Shown here: positions 17,064 to 59,063 of the stretch, piece after piece
How positions within the stretch are numbered: the stretch's first letter is position 1
Layout of the letters: each line of letters starts with the position of its first letter
Assembly (NCBI GenBank): GCA_016748015.1
Contig: JAAOMT010000303.1
Location: forward strand, 248,001-312,000
Direction of reading: 5' to 3'
DNA: 64,000 bases
From: Geosiphon pyriformis uo1
Taxonomy: Eukaryota; Fungi; Glomeromycota
Notes under the pieces: model-generated
The model's database searches: none
What the model was told of the DNA's origin: nothing
Seen by the model: the letters and a program-made list of their open reading frames with translations, nothing else
Position numbers and translations under genes: made by a program

Positions 17064-17116
17064 CCTACTGAAAAACTATATAAGAAACCAAAGTATGCAA
17101 CAAAGACAACAGAAAA

Positions 17117-17752: not shown

Positions 17753-17764
17753 AGGAAAAAATAA

Positions 17765-18667: not shown

Positions 18668-18671
18668 ATGC

Positions 18672-21300: not shown

Positions 21301-21848
21301 AAACAAAAACAAAAATAATATAAAAACTTATATATCAAAAATAATTTTTATTTTATTTATTTTTTAGTTAGTTATTATAATTATTTCTCAAAATATTCAA
21401 TAATTATTTCAAAATTTAATGTTAACTTTAAAAATACTATTCAAATTATTTATAATTATTATTAAAAAACATATTAATTATATTTAAACAAAATCTGTTA
21501 CAATTTTAATCACAAATTTACAAAATTACCATTTTTATAAAAAAAATAAAAAAAATTATTCTGAAATTTACTTATCAGAACTTTTAAAACAAGCTTTAAA
21601 AAAATTTAATATTTATATCTATTAATATTCTACCAAATATTACAATTTAACAAAAACCTTAACAGTATCTTAATAAATAAAACAACAATATCTTTTAATT
21701 TATAGATATTTTTATATTAAAAAAACATTATAATTAAATAATAAAAACTCTTTCATTGATCTCCTGGCCACAATAAGAGCTAAAAATAATTAAAAGAAAT
21801 ACACTTTTTTTTTCTTTCTCTCTAGTTTTTATAGTTATTTCTTTTAAC

Positions 21849-23822
21849 ATGATCCCTTTTGTTGCTATGGATTTAGTAGGCTTTTCTGTTGGTGGTTCTG
21901 GTTCTGTTTTGGCTGGATTGAGAACCCAATTTGGCACTAAAAAAAAAGTGTGCATAGAAAGTATATACTTTTGTGGTCCCTCATACAAAAAATCTAAGAA
22001 ATCTAATGTTGCTGGTAGTATGATAAACTTGTCAGCTGAACTTTTACCTGTTGATGTCTTACAAGCTGTCTATGGTAAATGCAAAGTGTCTTGGAGTAGT
22101 AAAGTGAAAAACAAAAAGACTAGTGTTAGTGAAATATCTAATGTTGAGAACATAAACAACATGATAGCTGAGAAAATGAATTACATAGATTCAAATGCTT
22201 CTGAAACTGATAATATAGTAGATAATGCAACTTCAAAAAAGATGCATACAAGAATGTTTGTTTTGAGTAAGCTGCTAAAAATGCTTTTTTTTAAGAATTT
22301 AAGTAACAATAATGCTAAAATAGTGTTGCTTGTGTCTAAGTTTCTTGAATCTCATAATCTATTATTGGCTGAATCATGGAATAAGAAAGTTAGAAATTTT
22401 AATTTTGCTAAATCATTTGCATTAGATATAGAGCTATTGGCAATATCTAGAAAGACTAATAGTAATAAATTATTTGTAATCAAGAAAATTTTCTATTGAA
22501 TTGATGGTTTTGGAGGGGCTTTCACTCTCTCAAAATTTCTAAGAATCATTAAGTTATCTTTTACATCTGAATTTAGTTTGAATAAGACAAAGAGTTTGGT
22601 TATCAGTGAAAAAATCTTGGTTAATAGTGACATAAAGAAAGTAAACAGCTGTTTAAATTGGGAATTAATTATCAAAAAAATCCCAGTAAATTTTCCCAAA
22701 TCAGCTGTGAAATCTGTGTTTTCCAAATTTGGCAAGATTATCTCTATCAAAATGCAACTAATTGGTCTATGGCAAAAGACTTTGGTAGAATTTAAGTCTT
22801 TAGATATGACTAACTCAGTTGCTTTTAAATAGTTGGTTTTCATGGAAAAGAATTTGGTGTGTATAGCCTTGGCAGTTAATAATAAAAAATCATGAATGGT
22901 AAGAGATTGTCATCAGGCTTTGTTGTATACTCTTCTAGTTGGGACTACAGCTCATAATTTGTCTGATTTATTGAAATTATATGGTAGAAAAACTTGTTTT
23001 ATTGGCTGTAATCTTATTTTATATGTGTATAATAGATGTGCAATAGTGTGTTTTGTTGATGAAACATTTAAGTTGGCTGTTATTGATTCTATTCTGGTGT
23101 TTAAGAGTGTGAATTTGTATTGGACTGGTCTCTCTTTAGTCTGTTGTGTCTATTGCAAACAATTTAGTCATGTTTTTGTTGATTGCTTAATAGGTAGAAA
23201 TTTCAGTAATCATAATAAGCAGATAGTGTTTTCTCAGAATTAGATTTGTTTGGCCAATATTTATAAGAAAAAACAGGTGTTTATCTCTCATCTGGTTTTT
23301 TTCAATGACAAAACTTGGGCTTAGATTGCTGGTAGTGCCTCTTTTTATGTAGTTTCATTGGTTTTTTTTGGTGTTGATTTATCTTCAGGTGCAAAACCCA
23401 TTTTAATTGTTTTTGGTCTTCTAGGTGTTTTTTGTTTGACCAACTGTTTGGATTTTTTGAAGTGCTCTTTAGAGCTTTTGACTAATCAGATGTTTGGAAT
23501 TTTGAAAAAATTGAGTTTTGTTGAATTGATACTCTTGGTATTCTCTTTTTATGTCTTTTCTCCAGTCACTTCTGTGTCTTTGGTTTCTGATTTTGATTCG
23601 AATATGATTCTGAATAATGTGTTAGCATTATCTGCTTCTTCTTTTTCAGTTGTTGTTGATGTGGTTGCAGACTTCAGCTCAAGTAGTTTTAAAGTTCTGA
23701 CCACCAAGATGGGTAATTTGGAGTTGAAAATAGTAGCTTTGAAAGTATCAATTGGTTTAGTTTTAAAAAAGTTGGATTGTTTGTGTTTTGGTTTGGGTTT
23801 GTCAACTCTCTTTTTATCTTAA
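21849..23822 (+). pseudogene. LINE ORF1 (RRM-like, zinc knuckle, C-terminal coiled-coil-like)
   Basis: In-frame ORF fragments at 21849, 22578, 22896 and 23358. Confidence 0.8.
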
Positions 23823-24899
23823 TAAGTAAATTGGTTTGGAAAATTGTTATGTATAATGTTTGAGGTATTAATATCTCTGCCAAGCAGAAGGATGTTGTTC
23901 ATTGATATGTAAGTTCAGGTAATTTGGTATTTTTTGTTATGGAAACTAAGTTGTGATTAAGTGTCAAATCATAGATTTCTAATAAGTTTGAGAATATATA
24001 TATCTTTATATTTGGGTTGGAAAAGGGTTTTTTTGGTGCTGAAGTAGTAATTATTATGAACAATTCTTTGGCTCATCATGTTTCTAAGATGGAGAAGATT
24101 CCTGGTCGAGTTATTTTGGTATGGCTTCTGTTCAAAGGCAAGCTCTCAGTTATGGTTCTGGGTGTGTATGCTGGTGTTTCATCTGAGACTAGATTTAAAC
24201 AGACTTTAGCAGTAAACTTTTTTATTGCTAAGGCTGTTAACTCCAGTACTTTTGTGGTTTTGGGTGGTGATTTTAATGAGAGTAGATTTGGGAAGAGTGC
24301 GAGTTTTAGGTTCTGTTTGAATTTGGATTTGGTTAATTCGTTTTCTGATCATTATTTAGCCAATGCTTCTATATGGAGCAATTCAAGAGAGGTTAAGAGA
24401 ACTATTGATTACATTTTTGTTAGTAAAAATTTGTCTTCAGCTGTTATTGGTCATAAGCTTGGCTCTGTTGCTGGTTTCTTTAACACTGATTATAAAGCTG
24501 TTATAGTATTTATTGGCTTGAGTAGACTTTTGGATGTTCATCTGAATAGCTTGTGCAAGTAGACTAACAAGAACCATTAGAAGTTTAAAATTAAGAATGT
24601 GGATAACACCAAATAGACAGAATTTAGAGAGTGCTTTATGGCTAAGTTGTTAGTAATGAAAGATAAGTTCTTAGTGGCAGCAGCTTGTAATTTGAATACA
24701 ATGTAAAAGTTATTAAAGGGAGTAATAGTAGAATTAGCTAATAAAACATTTTCTAAATATTGGTTTAGTGTCTGTTAAAGTGTGGGAAACAAATGTTTTT
24801 CAAAATTTTTTGGGTTAAAATTGTTAGTTGTCAAGATTATTAAGAGATTAGGCTTGAATAATATGCTTAGTTTTAAGTGTTTCATTAAGAAATAGTTAA

Positions 24900-25899
24900 T
24901 GTTATGGGTAAACTTGGTGGAATATGGTGGTAATGTTTGGTGCTTTAATTTAATGTTCTAAGATTATATGTTTTTTACAGAGTTAATGTTTATCAGTCTC
25001 TGAAAGTCTTTTCTGAATGTGAATTTATCCATTGAGTTCTTTGGTTATAAGACACAAAGTTTTGGTTTTTACTAATTGCAACTTTTTATAAAAGTAAGTT
25101 TTCTTCTCTGAGCTAATAAGTACAGTCATTAGAGTTTGGCATTGTCTTTTCACTCTTCTGATAAGCTAACAAGATAATGTTAATATTCAAAACTTAAGGG
25201 AAGTCTCCTTCTTTTATCAGACTATCATGAAATCTATTTTTAAACAGTCAATTTTTCTATATTGCCACTTCACAAAAGAAAAATAAAAAAGAAAAAAAAA
25301 ATAAAAGAAAATAAAAGAAAATAAATAAATAAATAAAATAAAATAAGAAATAAGTATCTTGTTAATTGTCATGATTAAGAGCTATTGTGCCAGCAGGTTA
25401 AATAGTAGATAATAACATAGATTTGAAGAATTGAAGAGATATTTTATTGATATAATTCCATTTCAGTTAATAGCAACTATTCTTGAAAAAAGGAGTATTT
25501 AATAATTATAACCTGCAAGTCTAATTAACACTGAGAGTCCAATTGATTTTGAAAGTCTAATTTTTTCTTTCAATGTCTTTCTAACTTCTACAGCTATTCA
25601 TTTTATACATTTTTTTTATTTTACAGGATTGCTTCTAATTGTTTTATTATTGCTAACTATTGTTTTGCTATTTCTGTAATTGCTTCATTTTTCTATATTA
25701 TTACTAGTTATCCTATATTATAATACATTATCTGGTGTTATTACATATTATTCTGTGTTATCTTATGTTATAATGTGTTATCCTGTGTTATTCTAAGTTA
25801 TAATGTATTATCTAATATTATTGCGTGCTATTCTGTGTTATGTCACATTTTGGTCACATTTTTTCATAACTTTGGATTGGTTTTTCTATTTGGATAATA
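24900..25899 (-). repeat. Solo LTR (family C) inserted in LINE 1 ORF2
   Basis: Reverse complement of LTR 40668-41679. Flanks are TTAA/TTGA (a 4-bp TSD with one transition), and the LINE frame resumes after it. Confidence 0.85.
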
Positions 25900-28887
25900 T
25901 TGACTTTAAATTCTAATAAGATTTACAAAGTTATAGACATGATTTAAAATTGTAAAAAGTCAATGGATATTCTTAAACACTTGTTAATAGTCCAGAAAAA
26001 GTACAGGAAGTCCAAGCTTTATGAGTTGAAATTGGCTGAGGAGGTGTCTATTAGGAAGGCAATTGACAGGTGCATGGAAAACTTTTGTTCGAATAAAGAG
26101 AGCATAATTAAGAATATTTTGGATAAGCCTTTTTGTAAGGTGGTTTTGGATTATTTAGTGGTAAATAATGAGTTGGTTTTGAAGCCAAAAGAGATGAAAT
26201 ACAATGTGAATAGAATTATGAAAAGTTAGACAAGAGAGCGGAAGGTGTCTTTGGTAATACCAGATCTCTGGGTCTGACAATATGTGCTATTAAATCATGT
26301 AAAAAATAGTGCTTTTTCTGGTGTGATGTGTTTTATTAATTTGAGTAATTTGCTCTTGGTTGTTAATGGTTTACCTGATGACAAAGCTATTGGCTTGTTT
26401 AACATTCTTAATAAACTGTAAAAACATGGTAGTAATGGAGTTTTGAAGTGGCTTTTAATGTTGTTAAATGTGTGTTTGGCTGTTGGTAGTGTTTCTACTT
26501 TGTGAAGAAAAACATAGGTTTTGATAATTCCTAAACTTTATGACTGGGATGGGGTTCTTATGAATACTTGGCCCATAGTTTTAATTGAGACTGTTAGAAA
26601 AATTTTCTTTAAGGTTCTGTTTGATTGTATTTTGTTTGCATGTAGCAAGTTTGGTGTTCTCTATGGCAATAGCTTTTCAGTATTAAAAAATACATCTACA
26701 CAGTCCTCTGTGTTTGTTGTTAGATCAGTAATTGAGGATGCTCTTGAGAAGAATAGAGAACTTTGGTTAGTTTTACAAGACATATGTAAAGTGTACAATT
26801 CTGTTGAATGTTTTTACTTAAAAGCTAACTTACAGAGGATCAAGATGTATAACAGGTTTATAAGATTTTTTGGCAGTATACATGAAGATAGGATTAACAG
26901 AATAATAACTAATTTCAGCTTGTTAGATGGCTATAGGGTGCATGATAGTTTGAATTAAGGTGAAGTTTTTTTGTCTTTTTTTTGGAGGATCTTCTACAAT
27001 TCACTTTTATATAAGATTAAAAGACATAAACAGTTGTATGGGTACTGAATCAATACTAAGTTTGTTTCAAAAATATGCAAAGTTAAAGGTAATGATGAGA
27101 TAACTTCTTATTTTGCTGCTAGTACATTTGTTGATAATACAATCTGAGTTAAAAACTGCTGCTATTTAGTATGCTTTGAACATTGCCAGTAAGTTTTTTG
27201 ATATCAATAATATTTCTATTAACAATGAAAAGATGGTGGCTATTTCCATTAATCAGGGAGTTAGGGTTGCTTCTTTGAATATTAGTGGTCAGCCAATTTT
27301 GATTGCTGCAAAAAGCAAAGCACATTGTTATCTAGAAATTTTTTTGTCTGTCAAAGAATTATTCAAGCCAAGTGTGTCCAAAGCTCACTCTGATGTTTGG
27401 TTCTTTGTTAATGTTGTTTTTAAGAAAACTATTATGAATAAATAATTTTCATATTTGGTATCAGCTGTCTTGTAATCTATTGTCAGTTACCAGACTTAGT
27501 TTAGTTTTGTCTTAGTTAACATGTATTGCAAATAAGATGCCATAATTAGAAAAAGTCTTAAACTTAAGATGCATCTGTTCCATAATTTTTTTGATACAGC
27601 TCTATATCATTTCTTTTTATATAATCTAAAATTTTTTGAGCAGGTGCAATCTAAAAGAAAGATGGCTTCTTTGGTGCCCTTTTCTAATGCCTTAGGCATT
27701 TTTGGATGACTATTTAATCATGAATTCTTGGACTTGCAGGTTTTAGGATGGGCTCCTTTGGATCTTTTGCAATTTTCTGTAAAGTTATATGTTAATCTGG
27801 CGAACAATTTTTTGGCTAGAATGGTTAAGATTTTTTTAGTAAACAATCTTTCTAATGCTTTTTATAGTTCTGGTTAATTTTCAATATCATCAATTCTTGA
27901 AAAGGCTTTGTATTTTGATTCTGTTCATTTTCTGAAATGTTTTGGGGTTGTTTTTGGTGATTAGCTTATTAATAAAAAGAGCAGTATATTGGATTGGAAG
28001 ACTTTTCATTGTTGGAAAAAACTGGATCTATGAGGTCCTGTTCCTTATTGGTTTGGAGTTGTATCTAAGTTTTTGTTGAATAAAGTTTTGTCTCCATCTG
28101 GCTGTGCTAACTTTGCTTAGTTATATGGTCTAAATATTTTAAAGTCTAATAGACTGTCTGCTGTGAGAAATAGTCTGCACAAGGTTTGGTCTGAATTTTT
28201 TGAAGTATATACAGATGGTTCATTAAAAGGTGTTGGCTTTGCCAATATTGCTAGTGGTGCAGCTGCATATTTTTCAGTTCTGGATATAAGTGTTGGTGTT
28301 GCTGTTCATGGTCTTTTGTCTTTTACTATGGCCAAGTTGCAAGTTGTTGCTTTGTTCTTGAAATGTGTTCTATTTTCTAGTACAGTAATATTGTATCTTA
28401 ACAGCCAAGCTGCTATTAATATGTGTGTGTTAAAATTATTATCTGATGTGCCTAATTTTTATAACCAGTATTGAATTAAAAGATGGCATATTTTCAATTT
28501 AATTAGGAATAAGGATTTTATTGTGAATTGGGTTAAGATTAAAGACTATTCTAAGATTGCTGATAATATAAAGGCTGATTTTGCAGTGGAGGTAACTGCA
28601 CAGTCTTCTTTTTTTTTGTTAGCTGGTATGTGGAAGCATTTTTTGGTGGCTAATAGCACAGTTGTGTTTGGTAATGTCTGTTATTTTGTCAAAAATATAT
28701 TTTGGTTTATCTGTTATGCTTGTTGAAAAGCTGATTCTGGCTGTAATGTGGTTCCAGATATGTTTATCAAGTGTGTAGACTGGATTTCCACCTTAAAAGT
28801 GTGACATCCTGATTCTAATATGCTTATTAGATTTACTAACCATAAGTCTTCTAACTTGTGCACATATTTAATAAAAGCCATGCACAG

Positions 28888-29674
28888 TGTTACTCATAAA
28901 AGGAAAAACAGATATAAAAAAATAGTAGACCAATAGGAGAGTAATAGTTAGCACATGAGCATATTACTCAGCAATATGGAGTGATATTAGAAAATTAGGA
29001 CACATTGTTCAAAAAATCATAGCATGTTGCTCGGAAATATAAGCAATCTTATAGAATCTTAATTATGTATATATAACAATAACATTAGAAGAAAAAAAGA
29101 CAGATCTCTCAGTTTAGATTTGATTTAAGGAACCTTCTATATCACAAATATCAATAAATAACTATTCACTATCTCAAAATTACTCCACTATCAATACTTC
29201 ATGTTAATAGTAATTGATACTTAACCACACTAGAACAATAGCTTTTGATCATGGCTATTGATGGGATACTAATATTTATTGTCTTGGCTTGTTTTGTTAT
29301 TTTCTTTTTATTTTTTTTTGTTATTTCTTTTGTTTTACTAATTGATTAAAGAGAAAAACACTGAATTATTGACATCAAAGATAGCCTGGTAAAAGACCCC
29401 AAAGAAAAGATATAACATTGAGAATTTAAGGATAGCTTACCAGAAGGGCATCTCTGCCAGATTATTGGTCACCACACTGAAAAAAAAATTCAATGGAATT
29501 GTAATTCTGAGAGGCTATTAAGAAGACAACAATTAAATTTCTGTTCATTATACAAAAAATTCCACCAACACCTTCAAATTCATAACATCTTCAGAAACAA
29601 CACTATTATAGCAATTGAACACCAAGTTACAGATTTGTTATTTGCCTTGAGATCCCAAATAATCATCTGTAACA
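28888..29674 (+). repeat. Solo LTR (family B-related) inserted in LINE 1 ORF2
   Basis: TGTTA...TAACA with perfect TSD ACAG. Confidence 0.93.
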
Positions 29675-30403
29675 ACAGACAATTGTCAGTAATGGTCAAA
29701 AAAAAATTATATAATAAGAGCTAGCCTAATGTGCTGTATTTGTTGTGTGATAAGATGGAGTTTTTGGATCATGCTTTTACTTGTGCTCAGAATATTGTTA
29801 TTTGTAATAAAATTTTGGTTGAGGCTTCTACATAGTAGACTGCTTTGGCTGGTGTTTGTAATGTGTCTTTTTTTGTTATTTTGTGGGTCTTTTTTTAATG
29901 TTTTTTGGACATTGACTTGTATATTGTGGTGTGTAAAAAATTTGTATTAAAAAAGTGGTACAAGAAGGCTTTTGGTATTTTTGAGAATGGAAAGGTGGTT
30001 GTTGTTAGAGTTGTAGAATTTGTGAGATTTGTTGTGGATTTACATTGTGCTAAGGCTTGGTTAGTAAGATCTGAGCACAAAGTAAAGATAGAAAAGATTG
30101 GTTTGACTTATGATAATAGTGTGATTTCTGGGCTGTCTCATGGTATGTACTTGGAGTTGTCTGATGGAGTAGTCAGATTACTTGGTATTGTTGAATTTTT
30201 TGCTGTTAGCTTTGGCTGTTATAAGCTGTGTCATTTTTTTTCTGGTTTGAATGGTAATATTAGTGTTAATATAGGTGTCTAGTGTTGTCTTGTCTGGCTT
30301 AAGTAGCTAGTTATATGTAGTAAGTACATAAGTCACATTTAGTTTGGGTCACTTAGTTTGGCTCTTTGTACTAAATAGTAGTTGGATTTTACTCATTAAA
30401 TGC

Positions 30404-31274
30404 TGTTACTCATAGAATATAAAAAATATATTAGCACATGAAATAGCCAATCAGAGGTAGCCATAGTAAATGTGGAATCTCAAGATTCCTCTCAAGAGAA
30501 ATTGCAGGATTTCAAGAATTTCAGGATTCTCCATGCAAGGAATCGCAGGATTCCAAAATTCCAGGATTCCTCTCAAAAGGAATTGCAGAATTCCAGGAAT
30601 TCCAAGACTCCTGAAGTAAAGAATTGAGAAATCTCAATTATGTATATATAGCAGTAGTGTTAGAAGTAGAAAAGGCAGAATTCTCAGTTAGAAAACCTCT
30701 CCATTTAGATTTTATCTAAGCAACTTTCCAAATCACAAATATTAATAAATAATTATTTACTATCTCAATCCACTCTTTACTATCAACACTTTATGTTGAT
30801 AATAATTGATACTTAACCATACTGGAACAATAGCTCTTGATTATGGCTATTGACAGGATACTAACTTGCAATTGCTTTTTGTTATTTTCTTTAATTTCTT
30901 TTCTTTTCTTTTCTTTTTTTTGTTATTTCTTTGGGTTTTGCTAAAAAATTGATTAAGGATTAAGTGCTGAGATACAAACATCATAAAGACTGGTAAAAGA
31001 CCCGTGAAAAAAAGGGTAGAACACTCATAGATTTGAGGATAGCTTACCAGGAGGATTACCAACCACCACGCTGAGAAAGAAATTTGACGAAACTGCAGTT
31101 TCAGGAAGCTACAGATAAAACCATCAATTAAATCTCTGTTCATTATACAAAGGACTCAACTCAAAAGCCTTTAAATACAATCAATGTACCAGTGTCACCA
31201 GCCTTGTCAAGATATTGAGCACCAAGTTACGGATTTGTTATTTGATTTGAGACCCCAAATAATCATCAGTAATA
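30404..31274 (+). repeat. 5' LTR with GGAATTCCA/GCAGGATTC tandem array
   Basis: Aligns with 39716-40593; CCAAT box near 30448; TATATATAG near 30643. Confidence 0.95.
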
Positions 31275-31276
31275 TT

Positions 31277-31293
31277 TGGTGCTCCCTATGAGG
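31277..31293 (+). promoter_or_regulatory. Primer-binding site TGGTGCTCCCTATGAGG
   Basis: 2 nt after the LTR; one mismatch to the family A PBS. Confidence 0.9.
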
Positions 31294-34200
31294 TATAATC
31301 CTACAGAGAACCAGTACCAACAACTAATTAACAGTGGCAGAATCAGAAAGTATAGGAGCAAACCATTTAGGATTCGCAAAATCCTTATTTTAATACTACT
31401 GTCAACATTTGGAATTAAATCACAATCATATATCAGCAGAATCAGCCTTCAATTTTTACGTCAATGAGAGAATTGCCTATTTGTTAAGGACACCAGTAAA
31501 CACTAAATTAGTGAGAGAAACTTTTTACCATGAATTAATACAAAACACCAGCTTACTAACAAATCATAATTTTACATCCATTATCACTGAGATTAACAAA
31601 GAAATTGAACATCATGCACAACAAAGATACCCAATCACCTACTTAAGTAAAGGCAAAGAAAAACTACAAACACCAGCAGTAACACCTCAACAGATCCAAC
31701 CACTCACTTGGAAGAAACACAGAGTTGAATTATCTACAAATCCATCATATCATTATACTCCGAAAAACACCATTCATATCACATCACCAAATGCATCCAC
31801 ATCAAATGTGACATTACTATTTGGACAATTTTTATTCCAAAGTAAACAAAGAAAAACAGAATTACTAGGCCCATATGACAAATATTTTGAAGGATTTTAT
31901 TCACAAACACCAATGCCATCAGGAATTTGATTACCACCACCTCCACCAGATTTTAGAATAGCTGATCTATTAGAAGCATTAGAATCAGAAGAAGAAAGAA
32001 AATCTGAGGATCAAGAATTTACTTACCAGAATTCAATTCCAGAAAACCTGGAAGTTGAAACCCTAAATGTTCAAACTCCGAAAAATTCAAATCAAGAAAA
32101 TCTGAAAACCGAAACTCTGAATATTTGAACACCATGGAATCAGAATATTCTAAACCCCAATTCAATCAATCAACCAAACTTACCTCCAAATATTGTCATT
32201 GATTACCCACCAATTAACCCAATAGCACAACCATTACTTCAACAACCAAATCAGCAAATTCAACAGCTGCAACAACAACTTCAACCATCTGTTCAACAGC
32301 AACAACCAAATGTAGACCCAATAGCATATGCACCAATTGCAAAACTTGACAATTTCACTGGTGAAGAGGACAATGCCCAAGTATGGCTAAATGATGTTGA
32401 GAAAGCCATTACTGCAAATGGATGGAATAATGCCAGAGCTCTTCAAGCAATCCCATACTTTCTTAAGAACACTGCCAATTCCTGATATCAGAGCCTGATC
32501 AATAAACCCCAGGACTTTAATGTATTTAAACTAGAGTTTCTAAAATATTTTAGTAACAATAATAGTATCAACCAATTGACAAACACCTTCACCATTATCA
32601 AACAAAGAGACATAGAAGCAGTTACCACTTACTTGGGATGCTTCCATCAAAATCTATGCCAAATTTAAGCAATTGACGCCAACTATTTCACAGTGCCACA
32701 AATCCTAAACCAATTTATTAGAGGTCTGTGCAGTAGTATCCTCCAATGTGTATGTCCAATGCATCCAGCAGACCTTCAAGCTGCAGTTACCAATGCCAGA
32801 GATTTTGAAGCAGCTGAACTCGAAGCTAATCATGCTCAAGCTGTTAATCTAGTGATGAATGGATCATCTGAATTGGATTCCAAATTGAAACAATTCAGTG
32901 ACTCCATTAACCAGAAGCTTAAAAAGTACTTAGCTGACAATCACGCAATTTATCAGCCATCTCAACAATGCAATAATTTAGGAATCACAAATCGCTCAGA
33001 AAATCAGTCGCATTCCTCATCATCTGCTAATCAGCCATGGCAACAAGAGACGTGTATCTGCCACTATTGTGGTAAACAAGGACATTTGAGAATTGATTGT
33101 CAGTTAAAGATAGAAAATCAACGATCAGGAAATCAATATTGAAATCCTGATCACTAGTTCTCAACTCCGAGATATCAATCAAATACAGAAATATATTAAC
33201 CAAATTACATACTTATGATACAGCCACAAATTTATCAGCTGCCAATTTATCAGCCAACAGCACCCATCATTTATTATCTGCAGCCCCAACCCATTTATCA
33301 GCCATAGCCTTAGGTAATCTACTAGCCGTAACAAATTCAAACACCACTGCAGAACTTACCTTAAAACAGAACTCAAAGGCCAAGATTAACACAGCAAAGC
33401 TGGAGATCATCGATGGTAGTCCATCAACCAATCCCCAGTTCTACAGCACAATCATCAAGTTCTCAACAATGGAATTCAGGTACCAGTTCCACCCAAAATC
33501 CGAATTCCCAACACTATTTAAGTCTCTTGGTTACTCCCGAAGATGTCACTTTTTACAACTCAGAATCTAATTAACAACCAGTACTTACTAGCAATATACT
33601 TCTGGCCACCATTACCAATGACAAAACATTGGCTGCCATATTCTTTTTTGAACTCGAAAAAACCACAATGATACCACTATTCAGTAGAGCCACCTTAGAG
33701 GAAAAACTCATCACGGCAATGTACACTAATGTGAAAGTTAATGGCCACTTCATCAAACTGATCCTAAACAGTGGATCAGCTGGCAGCATAATTACCAAAC
33801 AACTTATGGACCAATTAGGTCACTGAGTTGATTGCACCACCAGTACCAAGATCATAACTGCCAATAGAGCAACCAAAACTCCCATTGGTAAAATCAATGA
33901 TTTTCCTTTTGAAGTCAATGGCATTATTACTCCCATCAACGTCCTAGTTATGGAAACAACCCAATATCAAGCATTAGTAGGCAACAATTGGTTATCCAAA
34001 ACTAATGCCATACTCGATTGAACCACTCAAGAATTACAATTCAGTCAAAACGGTTGACACACACATATACCAGCCACATATGGCCATTTCAAGACTACCA
34101 ACTCAACAACCCCACTTATCAAGTTTAAGGAAGAAGAAAGGAAACCAACATGGAAAGCATATCAAGTCTCATGGGCTGATGAAGACCACAATGAGCTGCT

Positions 34201-37200
34201 GCCAATACTATCATGGGATAACAATGGAAAGGGAAAACAAAAAGAAGAGCTTACCTGGAAGACTGACAATTTGACCTGGACCGACAATGACGAAAACAAG
34301 CCAACACCAAACTGGGAATAAAAAGAAGAAAACAATAAAAGAAAGGGAAAAGAGAAAGAAGAAGAAACAACAACCACCAACACCACTTCTTCTAACTCCT
34401 ACATTTACCCTACACCACCACAATCTATTTATTGTTGACCAAAACTTATATGCATTGATTGTGGCAAGAAATTGTCATCAATAGGCGCATGCTGTAGCAA
34501 CGATGAGGAATATGCAATGGCAACCAAATTCTACTGCCATGCATGTGTCATAGAAAAGTTTGGATGATCAAAGAAGCAAGGAAAATGGAACAACCAACCT
34601 TGTTTCGCTTGTGAAGAAACTCTCTTGGATGAAGGAATGTGGAATGACATTTTAGAGTGAGAAGGAACATGTGACAAATTATGCCAATACACAATTCTAA
34701 TTAGCGACTGGGTAAGGAAAGGAACACCAATAAAAGCAGCCTGGAGAAGAGCAGTACAATGATTGGACAGTTGTCTATACAATAACAATAAGATTTAGCA
34801 AATGGCACTCACAAAAATAGAAAGAGCATTACCTGAGAAGATCAGAGAAATTAAAAACAACCCACCAGAACCAATAAAACTTGACTGGAATTCAGAACCA
34901 GTCATAAACCTATTGGAATTGAAAGAATTTCACAAATATTACCAATGTTTGGCACTTACCAGAGAAGAGCAAGAACAACAGCTAGAACAATTAAATGCCA
35001 GATTGTGCCACCATTGTTTAATTTCCAGTAATTTTGAATATTGTAATAAGTGTGATTTCATTTACAATCCACTACTACACATAATCTACATGATCCTGGA
35101 AAAAAAAAAACCAATCAGTAGCTGTACATCGGAATCAAAATTAGTTTTTGATCCCAATTCAAATCCCAACAACAACGACAACAAAAACACCAGTTCCAGC
35201 TCTGCTCAAAATGGCAACAAAAATATCAGCAATTCAAACTCCAATTCAAACCCTGAAATATATATTGCACTTTTTGATCTATCTAAGAAGCAGGAACTCA
35301 AATAGTATAGCAACAATAATGAAAGTATCATACTAGAACACATGCATAATACCAATGTAGGGTTTGATCTGAGATATCTGGGAAAAAAAGCCATCAAATT
35401 GGAACCAAATTTTCGCACTTGTATTGATTTCAAAATAGCTCTGGAAATTTCAGCAACAACCATGATCTAATTAGCATCTAGAAGTAGTTTAGTGAAAAAA
35501 AGAATCAACATCAGAGGAGGAATAATTGATGTGAGATACATAGAAAATATCATCACTATGCTACAAAATGACTCTGAAAAAACCTATATCATAGAGCCAA
35601 ACAAAAAGATAGCACAAGCAATATTTCTACCTTTGGTAAAAATAGCCCAATTAATGTTAGTGGGAAACAGAAAAAAATTAAGGATTACTGCTAGAGGGAT
35701 ACAGAAATTCAGATCAACAGATAGAATAGACATATTAATTAATATGGTGGAGGAAAAGATTATTGACAAAGAAGAAATTATCTCAACCCATCAATCAATT
35801 TCCATTTTGCCATATGACCAGTATATATTAGCCATAAAAAGGGAAGTAAGGGATCAAGCTCAATTGTTTAAAGCAGAAGCCACCATTTGTGAATTAGGAG
35901 AAATTGGACTTACTAATCTATACATATCAGCCAAAAGCCCCAAAAATATTAAAATTCCCATCTACAACACAACCAGAAGTGTTATTGAAATACCAAAAGA
36001 AACCATCATTAGATATTTAACCACCAAAGTTGAGGATCAACCACCAAACCACATTCCAGATTTTTCACAGCTTTGTGGATATGTGGATATTACATCACAA
36101 ACTATCTATGGAAAAGGTAAATGTTATCTGTTCCAGCCAGAACAATTGGAACAAATAAACATGGGGAATCTAGATCCACTTTAACAGATGCAACTCAAGA
36201 TGTTACTCAACAATTTCAATGACATCTTTGCCAGTGAAAACAAATTTGGCCAAACCAATATCATTCAGCATCAGATCAAGACTGGAGATGCAATGCCAAT
36301 AAAACAAAAAGCATACAAAGTATCACCAGCTAGCCATGAGATCATTTGTCAAGAAATTAACTGAATGCTTGACAACGGGCTAATTCAGTCATCAATGAGT
36401 CTATGGTCATCACCAGTGGTACTAGTCCAGAAGAAAAATGGGAAAATCCACTTTTGTGTAGACTACCAGAAACTAAATAGAGTAACAAAAGGTGATAGCT
36501 ATCCAACTCCAAAGATCCAAGAGCTATTCAACGCTTTTGGAAGAAATAAATGGTTCTCAACACTGGACTTAGATAGTGGTTACTGGCAAGTAGCCATGGA
36601 TCCAACTGACAAAGAAAAAACAGCATTCACCACAAGAGAAAAAAATTTGAGTTTGAAGTCATGCCATTTGGCTTGATGAATGCTCCAACAACATTCCAAT
36701 AGCTTATGGAAATTGTCTATACTAGATTACTATGGAAATCAGTAGTTGTATATTTGGATGACACCAATGTGTTCTTAAAAACATTTGATGATTATTTGCA
36801 TTATTTCCAACAAGTATTTAAAAGATTAAGAAGAGCTGGATTGAAGCTAAATGCAACCAAATGCTTCTTTGGAAAAACTGAACTCAAGTTTTTGGGACAT
36901 GTAGTGAGCAAAGATGGAATCAAAACAGATCCAGACAAGATTGAAGTAGTTAAGAACTTTCCAGTACCAACCAACTTGCCAGAACTAAGAACATTTTTGG
37001 GATTCGCAGGTTACTATCACCACATCATTAAGAACTTTTCTAAACTAGCTTAGTCACTTTATTATCTACAAACCAAGAATGTGAAGTATAAATGGACTGA
37101 AGCTTAACAAAAAGCATTCGACACATTGAGGAGAAAGCTTATTCAAGCTCTAGTATTGATGTATCCAGATTACAACAAACCATTCATCATTATTACTGAT

Positions 37201-37554
37201 GCATCAGGTCAAGCATTGGGAGCAATATTATCACAGAAAGGACCTGATGGAAGAGAGCATCCAGTAGCTTATGCCAGTAGAAGTTTAAGCCCAGTGGAAA
37301 AAAACTATGGAACTCCAGCACTAGAACACTTAGCAATCTATTGGGCTGTTATCAAATGGAGAGAATACTTGAGCCAAAAATTTGAAATATATATGGATCA
37401 CAAAGAATTGACTTCAATTCAGAAACAAGAATTTGCAGACGATTGCGATGCCAGATGGAAAATAGAACTTTGACCATTCAACTATACAATACATTACAAA
37501 AAGAGAAAAAACAATGAAAATGCTGATGGTTTGTTGTAAATAAGACAAATATAA
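31292..37554 (+). pseudogene. Gag-protease-Cys-rich-dUTPase-RT-RNaseH polyprotein, interrupted
   Basis: Fragments at 31409, 32693, 33629, 34802, 35492 and 36365 share a frame, with one homopolymer frameshift near 36640. Motifs: CHYCGKQGHLRIDC, LDLDSGYWQ, VYLDDT, TDASG. Ends ADGLL*IRQI*. Confidence 0.92.
35295..35722 (+). pseudogene. dut: Trimeric dUTPase domain within Gypsy pol
   Basis: NVGFDL / ASRSSL / GGIIDVRYIE / KIAQ / RGIQKFRSTD. Confidence 0.9.
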
Positions 37555-37615
37555 AAACATTTCAACCCAAAAATATAACAAAATTAAACCAAACCCAATA
37601 AAAATATAACAAAAG

Positions 37616-38992
37616 ATGAATACACAAAAATACTAACAGCTTCAACACTATATAAATACCCAACAGTTCAAGGAAAAGTTATCTCAAAAGAAACAAAATA
37701 ACATTAAGCAACAATTAAAATATTTTATCAATTATCAAAATATACTTTACCAGAAGAATAGACAAAATTCAGATCAACCAACCAGAGTAATTACAGAGCC
37801 AGAGAAAGAAACAATACTGTTTAACATGCACTCAGATCCAACAGCAGGACATTTTCACAAAAAAGCAACCATGGAAAGAACCAAAAAAAGATACTATTGG
37901 CCATTAATGTATCCAAACATTATCTAATATGTTCAAAATTGTGATGCTTGTTAAAGAAGAGGAGGAACAAAACCCAGTAAGTCATTAAGACCAATCAAAG
38001 TAGGACAACCATTTGATCATATTGGAATTGATTTAGTCAGACCATTAACAATTACCAGCAGAGGAAATAGATATATTGCAGTAGCCATGGACTAGTTCAC
38101 TAAATGGCCAGAAACAAAAGCAATTTAAAGAGTGGATGCAAAATCTGTTGCCGAATTCATTCATCAAGACTTGATTTGTTGACATAGATGTCCAAAAGAA
38201 TTATTATCAGACCAAAGAACTCACTTTGTGAACAGAACACTAACAGAATTGAGCCAAAGATTCGGAATTAAAAGGCCACTATTATCACTATATCATCCAC
38301 AAACAAATGGTTTAGTTAAAAGATTTAATAGAACATTGTGTGAAGCAATCACCAAACTTAGTCAAGAAAACCAGAACAAATGAGATTTGTTCATACCATC
38401 AGTACTATTTGCTTATTGGACAATGAAGCAAAATACTATACAAGCAACACCATTTGAATTAGTATATGATAGAACAGCAATAATACCAGTTGAGATAGAA
38501 GTCAACACATATCTAATTAAACCAATAACAGAAGAGAATTTTCAGGAAACATTGTTGAAAAAGACATATGACTTAATAGAAACACTGGAAAACAAATGAA
38601 AAAAAGCAGCTAATAATATTCAAAAGTTACAAGAAAAACAGAAAGAAAGACATAATAGTCAACTATCAGACAAACCAGTTGAATTCAAGATTAGAGACAA
38701 AGTACTCTTACATCATACCAAAGCGGAAAAACAATGGAATGGAAAATTTGACCCCAAATGGGACAGACCATTTTACATAAAAGAAATTCTAGGAAATGGA
38801 GCTTATAAATTAAGATTGGACAGCAAAATTTTGACAAAAGCAGCACATGAAGATCGACTGAAACCATACCACAATATAGTGTTACCATTTATTAGTAACA
38901 TTCCACAATTGGAAGTACAGAGACTATTAGTTAGACCAGATGAGATTCCATGAGATTTAGAACCAATCATTGTTATCAACACAAACACATAA
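37616..38992 (+). pseudogene. Integrase ORF, separately initiated
   Basis: ATG at 37616, out of frame with RT-RH. MHSDPTAGHFH, CDAC, HIGIDLV, YHPQTNGLV; 459 codons to TAA. Confidence 0.9.
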
Positions 38993-39053
38993 AAGTGATC
39001 AACCAAAAAGAATATATAAAGACATGGTAGATGCAACAAAAGATATCAGAAAA

Positions 39054-39701
39054 ATGGAGATTACTGATAACATCCACTTACTAGCACAACAACTATTCCA
39101 ACTGATTCAACAACAGAATATAGAAATTACTATCAATCAACAAACCATTTGATACTGAGATACCAGAAAGATATCCAAATATGAAAGTAAAAAAAAAACA
39201 GAAAACACCATCGACAAAATGGTTCTAAAAATAAAATTAGCAATTAAGGAACCAACAAGTGTTACCACATATTAAGAGTTGACCAAAGAAACATAAAAAT
39301 AGTGGATACACGAATTTCCAAGAAACTTCTGTTACTTTCACTTGGGATGACACTTGAATATTCAAAACTTATACATGGATAAAACAAAACAATTATTCAA
39401 CACAGCAATACTGCAACAACTAGAACAATTTGTGGGAAAGAACAATCTGACCACACAAGCAAGAGCCATCTATTGGCTACATATGGGATTTCAAAACAGA
39501 CTGGAAATCTTACTCAATCTGGAATTGGACTTCATTACAATTAACCAAATAGAAAAAATGACCAACACCCAATTTGAAGAATTGCAGAACCAGATAACTC
39601 AAATAATTCTTGAAAGAGAAGTTCAAGAAATACTCAATGACAAAGAATTAGAGTTAGGAGATTTAAGAGATTTGAGAAATTTTGATGGAGCTCAATATTA
39701 A
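39054..39701 (+). pseudogene. Third ORF (unknown function) between integrase and PPT
   Basis: ORF-track fragments 38970-39152 and 39354-39701 are in frame: MEITDNIHLLAQQLFQ...RNFDGAQY*. Confidence 0.8.
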
Positions 39702-39715
39702 AAAAAAGGAAATAA

Positions 39716-40593
39716 TGTTACTCTAGAATATAAAAAATATATTAGCACATGAAATAGCCAATCAGAAGTAGCCATAGTAAATATGGAATCCCAGAATTCC
39801 TCTCAAAAAGAATTGCAGGATTCCAGGAATTTCAGGATTTTCTGTGTGAGAAATCGCAGGATTCTAGAATTCCAGGATTCCTCTCAAAAGGAATTGTAGA
39901 ATTCCAGGAATTCCAGGACTCTTGAGGTGAAGAATTGAGGAATTAAGAAATCTCAATTATGTATATATAGCAGTAGTATTAGAAGTAGAAAAGGCAGAAT
40001 CTTCAGTTAAAAAACCTCTACATTTAGATTTTATTTAAGCAACTTTCCAAATCACAAATATTAATAAATAATTATTTACTATCTCAATCCACTCTTTACT
40101 ATCAACACTTCATGTTGATAATAATTAATACTTAACCACACTGGAACAATAGTTCTTGATCATGGCTATTGACGGAATACTAACTTGCAATTGCTTTTTG
40201 TTATTTTCTTTAATTTCTTTTTTTTTCTTTTATTTTTTTTGTTATTTCTTTGGGTTTTGCTAAAAAATTGATTAAGAATTAAGCACTGAGATACAGACGT
40301 CATAGAGACTAGTAAAAGACCCATGAAAAAAAGGATAGAACACTCATAGATTTGAGAATAGCTTACCAGGAGGATTACTGGCCACCATGCTGAAAAAAAA
40401 ATTTGACAAAACTGCAGTTTCAGGAAGCTACGGATAAAACCATTAATTAAATCTCTGTTCATTATACAAAAAACTCAACTTGAAAGTCTTTAGATACAAT
40501 CAACGTACCAGTGTCACCAGCCTTGTCAAAATATTGAGCACCAAGTTATGGATTTGTTATTTGATTTGAGACCCCAAATAATTATCAGTAACA
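39716..40593 (+). repeat. 3' LTR
   Basis: TGTTA...TAACA followed by ATGC. Confidence 0.95.
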
Positions 40594-40667
40594 ATGCATA
40601 AATAAATAAAAAATAAAAAACCATTTTATGAAAAAAAAACTGAACCTTAAAACAACAAATCTTATAT

Positions 40668-43600
40668 AGTTACCCAAGTAGAAAAACCAATCCAAAAGCT
40701 ATTGAAAAAACGTAATTAAAACATAATTAAAATATAATAATATAAAAAAACATAATAACACAAAATAATATATAATAATACATAATAATTTAAGATAATA
40801 CAAAATAATATGAAATAACACAAAATAACTAGTCATAATATAAAATAATTATTTATAGCATAAAAAACAAAGCAATAATTAATAATAACAAATAATTAAA
40901 AACAATTTTATAAAATTAGAAAATATGTATAAAAACAAATAGTTTTAGCAAATAAAAAAAAACAAACAAAAGCCAAGAACTTATTTTCTTAAAAATATTT
41001 TATCTTTAACTTGATAAAACTTTTTTATCTTATTTTTTTTATATTTTTATATTTATTATTTAATAAAATATTATTTAATCTACTTGTATATAATACTAAA
41101 ATTTGTGTTATTAAAATCAAATTAATTGTTTCTTTTATTCTTGTTTTAGACCAAATGCTATTAACATAAAACAGCTTTGAAATTCTAACAACTTAAACCA
41201 ATTGTTCTTAATTACAACAATTGATAATATTAAAATTTTTTTTTTCTTATTTTTTTTTTCAATTTTTTTTCTTAATTTTTTTTCTTTCTTTTGATAAAGC
41301 AGCAACATTAAAAAAATTGACTGTCTGAGAATAAACTTTATAATAGCCTAGTAAAAAAAGAAAGCTTTTAAGTTTGAATATTTATTTTATCTTATTAGCT
41401 TATTAAAAGAGTAAAAAAATTAACATTAGATCTTAACAATTGTGTTTAATTAGCTTAAAAAAAATAGCTTATATATATTAAACTGCAAACAAACAAACCA
41501 TATTTTTGTGCCTTATAACCAAAGAACTCCATATGTAAATTTATATCTATTAAAAATTTTTAAAAACTAATAACTCTAATCTGTCTTTTATATCAAACAA
41601 AAAAAGCTTCTTAAGCTTTCTTATCCAAATATAAAGCATCAAACATTATTATTATATTTTATTAAGTTTACCTATAATATTTAGTGCTTTTTATAAAATT
41701 ATAAATCTACAAAAACAAAATACTTCAGAAATTTACAAAAGTAATAACTATTGAGACTATAAAAAAAAATTATTTGCTATTTAGAAAAGTATTATATTAC
41801 TATTTTAGAAAAAACTTAAAAATACCAATAGAAACTGTTACTATTGAAAGTAATTTTATTTATTATGTACATATTAAAATTAACTATCTGTTAGATTAAA
41901 TAACAGATATAGTGTTATTTATAAAAATTAAAAATTATAATAATAAATAAAATAACCAATCAAAAATAGGCATAGTAAAAGAAAAAATTCAGAATTTTTT
42001 TTGAGAAATTGCAGTATTCCAGAATTCTAGGATTTTTCTTAAGAAATTTCAGGATTCCAGAATTCCAGAATTTTTCTTAAAGAATTACAGGATTTCAAAA
42101 AATCTTATATAACACAAATTATATATATATAACAAAAGTATTAGAAGCAAAAAAGCATTTATTTGACTCAAACAGAACAATAGTTAGCAATAATTACTTA
42201 TTTTATATTTCTCTTTTTAAAAAATAGTTTTTTATGACTTAAAATAGAAACCCATCAAAATTAATAAAATATATAATTATCATCTAATTTATATTATTAT
42301 TGCTTGATTAAGAATACTAAATTATTTTTCTATTATTAACAATTCATGTTAATAGAATTCAATACTTAACTATATTAAACCAATAGCTCTTGATTATAGC
42401 TATTAATGAAATACTAATTTTTTATTTTTTTTATTTTTTTATTTTGCTTATTTGTAATTAATTAAAGAAATTAAGTACTAAGTATTTAATATCAAAAATA
42501 GTCTGGTAAAAGACCTGAAAACAAGAGTAGAAATTTAAAAATAACTTACCAGAAAGACACAACTAACAGAATAAATTGGCTACCATGCTAAAGAAAAAAA
42601 TTTACAAAAGAAACCATTAATTGAATTTCTGTTCATTATACAAAGAACTCAATCAAAATTTTTAGACTCCAAAACCTTCAAAAATTATCAACATTTTCAG
42701 CTATTAAGTACTAAGTTACAAGTTTGTTATTTGTTTTAACATTCCAAATAATTATTTATAACAATAAAAAAACTTAAAAAGCAAATTTACCAAAAATTAT
42801 TGGCCTATTTTACTTCATTTATTATAAGAATCATAGCTAAAATATTTTTTTTAGTTGACAAAAAAATTAAAGTATATACCCAAAAGCAGTATTCTTAATT
42901 AAAAGAAAAACAAACATTAAAATTTAACTTTAAAAAATTTAAGTTTAACTTTAATAATAATTCACAAATTATACAAAAATAAATTTTACTTATAATTAAT
43001 AAAAAATTGATATTTATTTTACCAACAATTTCCTTATATTATTAGACCTTAAAAAGCAGAATCTTACTCAATCAATTTACTAAATCACAATTAAAAACTT
43101 TGAAAACTCTTGAAAATCTGTATTCTTAGAACTTTAACTAAAACTTTTAAACTAAATCCTTAAAAAAATACAGATTTTTTTTTAAAAATCTTACTCCAAC
43201 AATAAATAACTTAAACAAAAGCACTTTCTCACAAACATTATTCTTAATCCAATTACTAATTAAATTAACAACTATTTTCTTAAGAAGAATATTTATATTG
43301 TAAACTATTAAAACAATTAATAAAAGAAAACAACTAGTTTTAAGATTAACAAACAACCAAACATACTTCTGTTGATATTTTTTTTATTTATACTTAAACA
43401 AATTTTTATTACTTAAATTATGAGTTACAAAGATATTGCTAGACTGAAAAAAATTTTTGAAAAAAAAATAATACATATACATAGATTACAAAAGCTAAAA
43501 AAGTAATTAGAGCCAATAATTGAAATAAAACCAAAACAATTTAAGTCTTATTCTTCTTTTTAACTAAAATTACAAACTCATAATACTAAAATCTTTATGA

Positions 43601-46205: not shown

Positions 46206-47027
46206 ATTAATTATATAGTTTTATATTTATTTTAGTAAAAATATATTAATAAGTAAAAATAAATTTATGTAAATTTAAAACAAATTTATAATTACAAATA
46301 TTAATAATTTTAAAAATTATATATAATTTTAAAAAAAACAATAAATAATTTTATTAAAAACACAATACAAATTTTTTTTAAATTTATATTATTATTTAAT
46401 ATTAAAACATTTTAAAAATACAGATTTGAATTTAACTTATCAATTTTTTTATTATTTAAATTATTACAATTTTATTAAACTTTAAATTAATAAATAATTA
46501 AAAAACAATTAACAAAAAAACAAAAAATTAAAAAAAGTATAAAAAATACAAATTTAAATTTAGTAATAATTTTTAAAATAATTAAATAATTTATAATTTA
46601 TTATATTAAACTTATTAATTTAAATCTTATTAAACTAGTATTTAAAGTATTAATTTTAATAACTCTAATAAACTTATTAATAATTTTGATTATTAAAACC
46701 TATATTTTATTTATAATTTTAATAATATTTATATTTATTATAAAATTAAAAAAATTTACTAAAAAAAACTATATAAAAAAGCAATATAAGTAATCTTATA
46801 CTTTTTTTAAAACATAATCAATTTATAATATTAAAAAGCCAGCAAATTTTATTGTATTTAAAACCATTTAAAAAAAAACTTCTTTCTTTCTTTTGTTCAA
46901 ATTTTTTAAAAAGCAATTTTTTAAAAAAGAAGTTTTTTTGTTTTATCTTTCTGATTTTATTTTTCTCAATATTTCTTAAGCTAATAATTTTTTTGTGATA
47001 GACTTAGAGACTGCTTTGAATAGCAGT

Positions 47028-48871
47028 ATGTCTAAAAAGAAGACTCCTAAAAGTGTTCTTTATAATCTTGTTGATAGTACTTTCTCTTAAAAAAAAAAGA
47101 TTTCTGTTGACAATATAAAGCATTCTGATAATAAAAAAGAAATTTCTCTGGTTAAATCTGGTGTTAATAAAGACATATATTCAGATATGAAGAGCAAGTT
47201 CAATGACAGTAAAATTGGTAGTTTTGTAATGAGCTTAAGTAGTGGTTTTCTTTTTGGCTTAGCTGTATTAACCTCCAAAGCTAAAAAAACAATACTGGTT
47301 TAATTGATGGTTTTCTTGTTGGTATTATCAACTTTGAAATAAATAAAAATATGGATTTTCTCTTTTTTTTTCTCAATATTTCTCTTGACAAAAAGTGGGT
47401 TAATTCCAAAATAGTAAAAATTTAAGTTAAAGTATCAGTTAAAAAATTCTATGCTTTGAACATTAATTTCTTAACTGTAAAAAGAAAATTGACAATAGTG
47501 AAGACTCAATTCATTAGAAATTTTTTTTCATCTGTCATTGATTTTGGGAGAATCATTATTCCCTTAAAATTTGAAGAGATCATTTGATTGATATTTACTT
47601 TAAAGAAAAGCATAGAGAAAGCCACATTATTGGCTAAAAAAAGGAGGATTATTGTAAACATTAATCTTAAAAAACAAGAAATTCATTTAAATTGGACTAT
47701 AGTAATTAAAAAAATTCTCATAAATATGTCTAAAAAAATAATTATTACTGCAGTTGCCAAGTTTGGTCAGATTGTGTCAATCAAGATTCAACTAATTAAA
47801 ATGTGACAAAAGACTGGTAGAATTTGCCAAATTGAGTCAGACTAATCTGTTGGCTGTGAGATAGTTATTCTTAATCAAGAAAGATTCTGTGTATATAGCC
47901 AAAACCATAAGAGATCATAATATCTGAACATCAAGAAATTGGTTTAAGGCATTTTTGTTTACTTTGCTGGTAAAAACAATTGCACATAATCTTGGAATGC
48001 TTTTGGAAAAGGCTGGTAGAAAAACATGTATTATTAATTGATTATTTGAAACTGGTAATAGAATCTATTGTACTGTAATTGGTTTTAATATTAAAAATGA
48101 TCTGAAATTTGTTTTTTATATAAAGCCAATTCTTGGTGGTGTAAAACTATTATGGGCTAGAATAAATTTGGTTTGGTGTGAGAAATATGAATGTTTTGGA
48201 CATTTAGCTTTTGAGTGTAATATATTAAATACATTAGTTATGTCTCTTTCTAAGTTTTATAAAAAGTTTGTTTTAAAGAAAAACTGTTTTTAGCTTGCAA
48301 AGTTGTATACAAAAAAAAGTGTTCCAATTTCCCAACTTGCTGTCTTTGGTGGCAAATCTTGGGCACATGTGGTCTTTTTTGATTCTTTTTTTAGTGATTC
48401 TTATTTCCATTCTGGTTTTGGTTTTTTTCTTTTAATGCTGTATATAATAAAAAAAGCACACTAGTTGTTCAAGATGACTTCTCAATTGATGATTATTTGG
48501 TTTTCTTGGAATATTTCTTGAAGCTCTTAGCTAATCAGATATCAAGTATTATAAGAAAGCTGAACATAATTGATCTGATGTTTCTGGCATCTATTTTCCA
48601 ACTTTTTTTTCTTACTGTAATTGTGCTTCTGAGTTTGAATTCAAATTCAAACATAATTTTAAATATTTTACAAGTGTCTCTTACTATCTCTCTTTCAGTT
48701 GCATTGGATATGACTTTGGCTTTTGATTTGAGTAATTCAAAGATCCTTATCACTAAGATAAGCAGTTTAGAATCAAAATTGGTGGCTCTTAAGATCTTTG
48801 TTGATTCTGTTTTGTTGAAGTTAGATTATTTGTATGCTAATTCAGGTTTTTTGGCACATTTTTTTTCTTAA
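47028..48871 (+). pseudogene. LINE 2 ORF1
   Basis: Homologous to LINE 1 ORF1 (KFGQIVSIKIQLI; KISSLESKLVAL). Start approximate. Confidence 0.78.
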
Positions 48872-53528: not shown

Positions 53529-53664
53529 TGTTGTCTTGTTTGGTCTAAGTAGCTAGTTATATATAGTAAGAATATAAGCTGTATTTAGTCTGAACTACTT
53601 AGTTTGAGTTTATATACTAGATAGCAATTAGACTTTACTTGTAAAATAAATAATAAAACCATTT

Positions 53665-59061: not shown

Positions 59062-59063
<2 letters not shown>

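Follow-up and report, generated by a model that had tools for sequence, protein, structure and literature searches.

A 64,000-nucleotide stretch of the Geosiphon pyriformis genome (contig JAAOMT010000303.1, positions 248,001-312,000; hereafter the window) carries two long terminal repeat (LTR) retrotransposons, element 1 (8453-18667, + strand) and element 2 (30404-40593, +), in which the integrase is encoded apart from the rest of Pol. We are highly confident of their architecture: a first open reading frame (ORF1) with Gag, protease (PR), a Cys-rich region, dUTPase, reverse transcriptase (RT) and RNase H (RH), then a stop, an AUG-led integrase (IN, ORF2) and a third frame, ORF3. Judged by their RT, IN and LTR features, the elements belong to Ty3/Gypsy, minus the canonical fused IN. 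Comparison with relatives indicates that the integrase with an AUG start of its own and the ORF3, which is no env gene, are both ancestral and not a result of decay. This implies an unusual expression route, as the initial annotation of this DNA had proposed.

In element 2, the integrase frame (37616-38992, +; 458 codons, decayed) follows the Pol stop and an A/C-rich spacer (37552-37615, +). The integrase frame of element 1 (15681-17063, +; 460 codons) begins 30 nt past the Pol stop, and another TAA lies in this interval. Pfam matches to H2C2, rve and SH3 mark an HHCC finger, a DDE core and a GPY/F-type SH3 end; there is no Chromo match at E 0.1, and the protein stops about 42 aa past the SH3 match. 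A homologue search that admitted proteins of 253-807 aa gave, as the best 120, proteins of 390-453 aa with 41-48% identity from metagenomes and Rhizophagus, and in 103 of them a methionine start stands in the same alignment column as that of the window IN. Viral contigs yielded no IN relatives worth study. The AUG-led integrase of about 460 codons in the initial annotation was thus correctly read, as were the element limits, which are exact to the LTR ends and target site duplications (TSDs), and a frame of about 215 codons that ends at the polypurine tract (PPT) (215 and 211 codons). For the single frame of about 2100 codons from Gag through RNase H, the domain order held but the open frame did not: it is a read-through reconstruction of about 2,070-2,090 codons, interrupted in element 2 by 32 stops and in both copies by deletions.

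Two copies alone cannot prove that the RH/IN stop is real, because 8 of the 47 internal stops of element 2 are stops in element 1 as well; it is the relatives that show it to be genuine. Since decay evidently makes shared stops, the RH stop could in principle be a CAA-to-TAA change in a common dead ancestor and ORF3 a chance frame, a reading that we find scarcely credible. Our junction survey covered 80 metagenome loci and three window elements, 39 of them with a readable RH-IN junction. In the window's clade all 13 junctions are split, four in frame and nine out of frame, the latter in both other frames, and the gaps range from -8 to 727 nt. The other 26 Gypsy junctions comprise 21 fused and 5 split ones; the splits of L037, L047, L055 and L059, which are nested within fused relatives in the trees, appear to be lesions peculiar to single elements, and the fifth split is that of L035. 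Fully open ORFs with the same split occur in L005, L007, L008, L009, L012 and L016. L007 is intact throughout, with an open Gag-PR-RT-RH frame of 1479 codons, 62 nt, an IN of 418 codons, 129 nt and an ORF3 of 147 codons, and it also carries a PPT, an LTR and a primer binding site (PBS). The open ORFs of L007 already largely refute the decay reading, against which there also stand the codon-position bias of ORF3, its stop-free homologues and its profile homology to the ORF3 of relatives.

Trees were computed from metagenome loci, window elements and Rhizophagus proteins, with no named GyDB or Repbase references; 12 of the 39 junction elements were dropped from the RT-RH tree for too little RT and one from the IN tree for too little IN. 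In each tree one branch sets the split elements apart (support 73/84 for RT-RH and 48/36 for IN), and a single origin is allowed by these topologies. Both trees also return the same sister pairs, namely L001+L022, L009+L020 and E1+E2 (elements 1 and 2). This agreement on the split side and on the sister pairs suggests long co-descent of RT-RH and IN and argues against a captured Ginger-like DNA-transposon module, recombined as IN plus ORF3 onto an RT-bearing element. Such a capture would suit a free IN gene whose N-terminus resembles by eye the YPYY motif (PMC2836005, accessible part). However, no terminal inverted repeats (TIRs) flank IN, and Ginger1 is reported from animals only in the accessible part of the same source, so that we regard a capture as highly improbable.

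The split might also be only apparent, with IN made as an RT-RH-IN fusion by readthrough or frameshifting. Besides the four in-frame junctions, the Pol stop of the third window element, a TGA-C with an open frame on to IN, would fit this, as would the use of a readthrough-type stop elsewhere by relatives. Three loci in two subclades (L001:870-875, L016:3358-3363, L022:1585-1590) have an in-frame TGA-CTA between PR and RT, and CTA follows only 5 of 372 TGA triplets in these loci. RNA viruses use UGA-CUA as a readthrough signal, and programmed readthrough between PR and RT is likely in these three loci. The IN junction itself does not seem to be of this kind, since TGA-C stands at only 1 of 13 Pol stops and the leaky context that relatives use elsewhere is lacking there. 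With nine of 13 junctions out of frame, in both other frames, two in-frame TAA codons in element 1 and a conserved methionine at the IN start, a fusion product is very unlikely. Other gag/pol arrangements are seen as well, such as an overlap in another frame in L009 and a single ORF in L007. In addition, Pol continues past RNase H in L007 (3505-4441, about 310 aa) and L016 (4944-6705, about 585 aa), where neither extension has a Pfam match above cut-off.

The junction appears to carry more than a stop. Over the first 33 nt of stop plus spacer the two window copies are identical at 32 positions, the remainder being a 31-nt insertion in element 2, as compared with 75% identity in the adjoining upstream RNase H sequence and 68% between IN and ORF3; this contrast suggests a cis signal. 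Stop and start overlap at the IN junction of L022 and L026, a purine occupies position -3 in 18 of 21 IN starts, and the 11 spacers of 30-190 nt contain 1 ATG against 10.05 expected (P 5e-4).

One subclade of relatives has a 38-nt motif that ends 3-16 nt upstream of the IN AUG. It was found first in seven loci, and a model built from these and run over 81 sources added an eighth copy in L032 at 53.9 bits and a weak ninth at the same position in L003 at 17.8 bits. The first eight copies lie at L007:4464-4501, L004:586-623, L006:186-223, L011:491-528, L018:176-213, L024:9-46, L028:493-530 and L032:20-57, and the INs that follow them fall in one subclade together with Rhizophagus proteins (support 93). 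The motif folds as a covarying three-way junction (96/96 cells paired, 5/12 pairs changed on both sides), its structure being derived from the same sequences, which gives the slide control a bias towards it. Eighty phage loci chosen for its core pattern scored at most 32.2 bits, and Rfam gave no match at E 1 or E 10. This covarying junction RNA and the UGA-CUA stop between PR and RT of relatives are new finds.

Our preferred reading, to which we give a roughly even chance, is that translation of IN would begin on the genomic RNA at an AUG of its own, through reinitiation or internal entry. The LTR-to-LTR transcript would be translated into Gag-PR-dUTPase-RT-RH, and ribosomes that resume beyond the Pol stop, or are loaded at the spacer, would then start IN. 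A cis signal at the junction would hold or recruit the 40S subunit and may differ by subclade: the 33-nt A/C-rich stretch in the Geosiphon copies, the 38-nt three-way-junction RNA in one subclade and the stop-start overlap in others. The free IN would have to reach the particle separately, likely via RNA binding as for foamy-virus Pol, and the dUTPase probably excludes uracil from the cDNA. ORF3 might help in trans with the expression of the integrase or with its loading, the weakest step of the scheme and a doubtful one. Viruses are known to reinitiate after long ORFs with help in cis or in trans (PMC5972666, in the part available).

The main rival, a real possibility but short of an even chance, is that IN and ORF3 are expressed from subgenomic mRNAs, either spliced to the LTR leader or internally started, the junction being a splice acceptor or promoter. 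Precedents are foamy-virus pol and Drosophila gypsy env, each expressed from a subgenomic mRNA. In all eight copies of the motif the 3' end reads GTGAY-NNN-YAG with a bulged A, an end that we take to resemble a branch point and 3' splice site, and the ATG-rich long spacers of L001 and L016, which scanning reinitiation could not cross, would need a route that skips them. According to the accessible parts of two sources, ORF3s of LTR elements typically come from spliced messages (PMC5408684) and foamy pol is spliced (PMC7828637). On the other hand, the spacers of element 1, L012 and L021 have no AG, unless the acceptor sat inside RH; the compensatory pairs of the motif would bury the putative acceptor in a stem; and stop-start overlaps bring no advantage under splicing.

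Several observations weigh against our preferred reading. The monophyly of the split elements is weakly supported in both trees, and the size limit of the homologue search excluded fused IN forms by design. The A-rich spacer holds few mutable C or G, which favours its identity between the two window copies, and the 38-nt motif is absent from the window (best score 9.5 bits). Taken over all 13 spacers the ATG depletion is non-significant (20 against 28.5 expected, P 0.06), and the longest spacers, in L001 (365 nt, 7 ATGs) and L016 (727 nt, 12 ATGs), are at chance level. Finally, the split elements L001, L014, L017, L022 and L023 have no ORF3, IN being followed by the PPT, so that a split IN does not require ORF3; in L001 it is missing in spite of the 365-nt spacer.

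Where it is present, ORF3 follows IN (11 relative loci) and usually ends in or at the PPT. It spans 39054-39701 (+, 215 codons; 225 from an upstream in-frame ATG at 39024) in element 2 and 17117-17752 (+, 211 codons) in element 1. Its divergence between the copies at codon positions 1, 2 and 3 is 0.43/0.26/0.55, as against a flat 0.29/0.35/0.29 in the LTR, and this bias shows that ORF3 is under coding selection. All 94 of 94 homologue matches are named Geosiphon pyriformis (best 81% identity, stop-free copies included), and stop-free copies also occur in metagenome relatives. A profile-profile comparison of the window ORF3 with that of relatives gave 83.6% (E 8e-6, 74 columns) with divergent members added and 2.4% before their addition. 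In single-sequence comparisons by hidden Markov model, only 4 of 12 proteins scored above all 100 shuffles one way and 3 of 12 the other way; since most fail against the shuffles, the homology is remote. Two AlphaFold models are confident and all-helical (pLDDT 79 and 86), and across 18 ORF3 proteins (119-234 aa) the maximum 19-residue hydropathy is 1.29, with no membrane segment, so a soluble all-helical protein is predicted. An Env was rejected on account of the missing membrane segment and glycoprotein size and the soluble helical models. ORF3 has no Pfam family at useful score, no phage match, a best PHROG E of 0.006 and no PDB sequence match below E 0.17, and no similarity in sequence or fold with any viral protein was found. 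Structural comparisons peaked at Z 5.0 and 5.3, and Foldseek gave nothing at E 0.001, which is not enough to call the fold new. The Geosiphon ORF3 has no usable ESM Atlas match; that of one relative matches a closterovirus coat (0.94) and a phage translation repressor (0.92), which with fewer than 170 shared features are leads only.

ORF1 covers 31334-37554 (+, ending with TAA 37552-37554) in element 2 and 9372-15650 (+, TAA 15648-15650) in element 1, both decayed, and Pfam matched Gag, protease, dUTPase, RT and RNase H on this frame. In element 2 an N-terminal extension precedes the capsid (~32450-32730), followed on the same strand by a zinc knuckle (~33060), protease (33710-34069), the Cys-rich region (~34440-35080), dUTPase (35309-35746), RT (36239-36957) and RNase H (37078-37551). 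The Cys-rich region has no Pfam match, and its putative metal binding is read from CxxC pairs alone. Both copies open with GTG instead of ATG. Identity between the copies exceeds coding need at this apparent start (31334-31370, 36/37) and between zinc knuckle and protease (33497-33540, 40/44), where a non-AUG start and Gag/Pol regulatory signals are possible. One frame is favoured by codon bias, yet over 33360-33479 this bias is flat, so that a Gag-Pol frameshift in this element family is possible. A TGA shared at 31928 was rejected as a functional stop, as it aligns with Gln in another copy and is thus decay.

The dUTPase is matched by Pfam at E 5e-15 and 2e-14 in the two copies (positions 5-125 of 129) and further supported by PDB and PHROG matches; all five motifs of trimeric dUTPases are recognisable in spite of decay. 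From this we take it to be genuine, with a putative activity; it is also under coding selection. A second dUTPase remnant (7516-7887) lies within the older element that element 1 interrupts. The domain was found in none of the 83 loci examined and not in the third window element, and a dUTPase between PR and RT has already been described for fungal Gypsy elements (PMC2864245, accessible part). As an add-on of the Geosiphon element family that is known elsewhere among fungal Gypsy elements, it is not a clade marker and does not define a lineage. The initial annotation had three features jointly define one; this is not supported, the split IN being broad (13/13), ORF3 missing in one subclade and dUTPase confined as described.

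Both elements have TGTTA...TAACA ends and the same TSD ATGC (8449-8452 and 18668-18671 for element 1, 30400-30403 and 40594-40597 for element 2). The LTRs lie at 8453-9312 and 17765-18667 (+; 90.0% identity) in element 1 and at 30404-31274 and 39716-40593 (+; 92.2%) in element 2, where the PBS (31277-31293, +) starts 2 nt past the 5' LTR and the PPT (39702-39715, +) abuts the ORF3 stop. The PBS core is common to both elements, the third window element and the intact locus L007; elongator Met tRNA may be the primer. Since the LTR pairs are 8-10% diverged and nearly all differences are transitions (transition:transversion 66:2 in element 2 and 84:2 in element 1), both elements are old and dead, and the decay after insertion consists of C-to-T/G-to-A change. 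The two are mutually 73% identical overall. Element 2 has no open frame, its longest stop-free run being 237 codons; its transition-made internal stops number 32 in ORF1, 9 in IN and 6 in ORF3, and a 1-nt deletion lies near 36645. Element 1 has mutually cancelling deletions of 1 nt and 2 nt (10970, 11305). Domain searches used the decayed frames translated with X at stops. In 11 of 11 coding segments the divergence between the copies has its minimum at codon position 2 and its maximum at position 3, which is more than chance. The LTR-pair decay is not restricted to CpG, with CA and CT contexts leading (contexts not frequency-normalised), a pattern that suggests broad cytosine methylation or a process like repeat-induced point mutation.

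The window is AT-rich and CpG-poor (CpG observed/expected 0.17) and packed with decayed repeats. The third, distant element of the same clade (134-5149, -) contains Gag, PR, RT, RH, a stop and a Met-led IN (1414-134) and runs off the window. The older, far more decayed element interrupted by element 1 (6406-7887 with PR and dUTPase, 18672-21129 with RT and IN, +) is a second dUTPase-bearing family. Solo LTRs lie at 28888-29674 (target duplication ACAG, 28884-28887) and 41913-42763 (ATAG/ATAA, 41909-41912); with the ATGC of elements 1 and 2 these make four cases of 4-bp target duplication, from which a target preference is possible. Further decayed repeat families occupy 21700-30400 and 46800-62000, with paired copies at 26074-28878/50092-52915 and 46871-49647/59098-61831. 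One of these families has received insertions of element 2 and of a solo LTR. The element family is very abundant: in one DNA run, 28,026 of 2,090,870 contig records match 37200-39800, a depth and not a copy number. LTR sequence amounts to 41.2% of the G. pyriformis genome according to the accessible part of PMC11952901.

In our view, the parts worth testing are the free integrase, the junction RNA and the ORF3 family, the dUTPase being ordinary. Gypsy-type elements package integrase as part of Gag-Pol, and a separate IN poses two problems anew: how to start translation after an ORF of 1,500-2,000 codons and how to bring a free enzyme into the particle. The boldest reading, which as a whole we hold to be improbable, is a large clade of mycorrhizal-fungus elements with a virus-like, polycistronic programme that would combine RT readthrough, an RNA-launched free IN, a TAV-like or IN-loading ORF3 of new fold and a YPYY-type IN. 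If this were true, the free YPYY-type IN gene would be an intermediate of the sort that connects Gypsy integrases with Ginger1 transposases. Compact cassettes for gene co-expression could be derived from the junction RNA and from short spacers. For annotation, many G. pyriformis "hypothetical proteins" (94 among the matches) are ORF3 fragments, and "DDE-type integrase" genes that stand alone in Rhizophagus annotation probably belong to these LTR elements and not to DNA transposons.

Compared with Ty3/Gypsy (Metaviridae, e.g. yeast Ty3), the elements share TG...CA LTRs, the 4-bp TSD, PBS, PPT and the order Gag-PR-RT-RH-IN; their RT-RH is of Ty3/Gypsy type, with a Pfam match to RT_RNaseH_2 and Ty3 RT as best solved-structure match (237 bits, E 3e-69; caulimovirus 149, foamy virus 96). 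They differ in that IN, the C-terminal part of Pol in canonical members, is a separate AUG-led gene followed by a non-env third ORF. A chromovirus was rejected, as the window IN has no C-terminal chromodomain, and likewise an errantivirus or other env-bearing element, as ORF3 has no signal peptide, transmembrane helix or glycoprotein size. In the literature, we found no description of a separately encoded Gypsy integrase or of the junction RNA motif, with Repbase/GyDB and most subscription papers lying outside the search. IN is within Pol in Troyka, lokiretrovirus and Odin elements, so far as their accessible descriptions go, and in the elements of PMC3248453 (accessible part). A dUTPase between PR and RT is shared with PosPlaTy3-5 of Postia and with Phanerochaete and Tuber elements; the elements of that report include chromodomain-bearing ones, whereas no chromodomain was detected in the window IN, and its accessible part mentions no split IN (PMC2864245). 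Bdelloid rotifer LTR elements likewise have a dUTPase in pol and a non-env accessory ORF3, but bdelloid ORF3s are env-like or GDSL or DEDDy enzymes, with IN inside pol (PMC5408684, accessible part). The window IN resembles, by eye only, the YPYY integrases (Ginger1, Athila/Tat, Cer1, Gypsy-1-I_RO, DGLT-A1) in a Tyr/Pro-bearing segment of about 40-60 aa before H2C2; a GPY/F-type C-terminus, a 4-bp TSD and TGT termini are common to both (PMC2836005, accessible part). Ginger1 itself has TIRs and no RT, in contrast to an IN that sits inside RT-bearing LTR elements. The polycistronic RNA with a last ORF recalls, as an analogy only, the caulimovirus CaMV with TAV/P6: TAV permits reinitiation across gaps from a few to 700 nt (PMC5972666, accessible part), a span resembling the -8 to 727 nt of the clade. 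However, caulimoviruses have neither integrase nor LTR, and ORF3 has no similarity to viral proteins. In foamy viruses (Spumaretrovirinae), an enzyme made apart from Gag must be packaged through RNA binding (PMC7828637, accessible part); there the whole Pol is separate and spliced, whereas in the window elements it is IN alone, with no Env and no tether RNase H.

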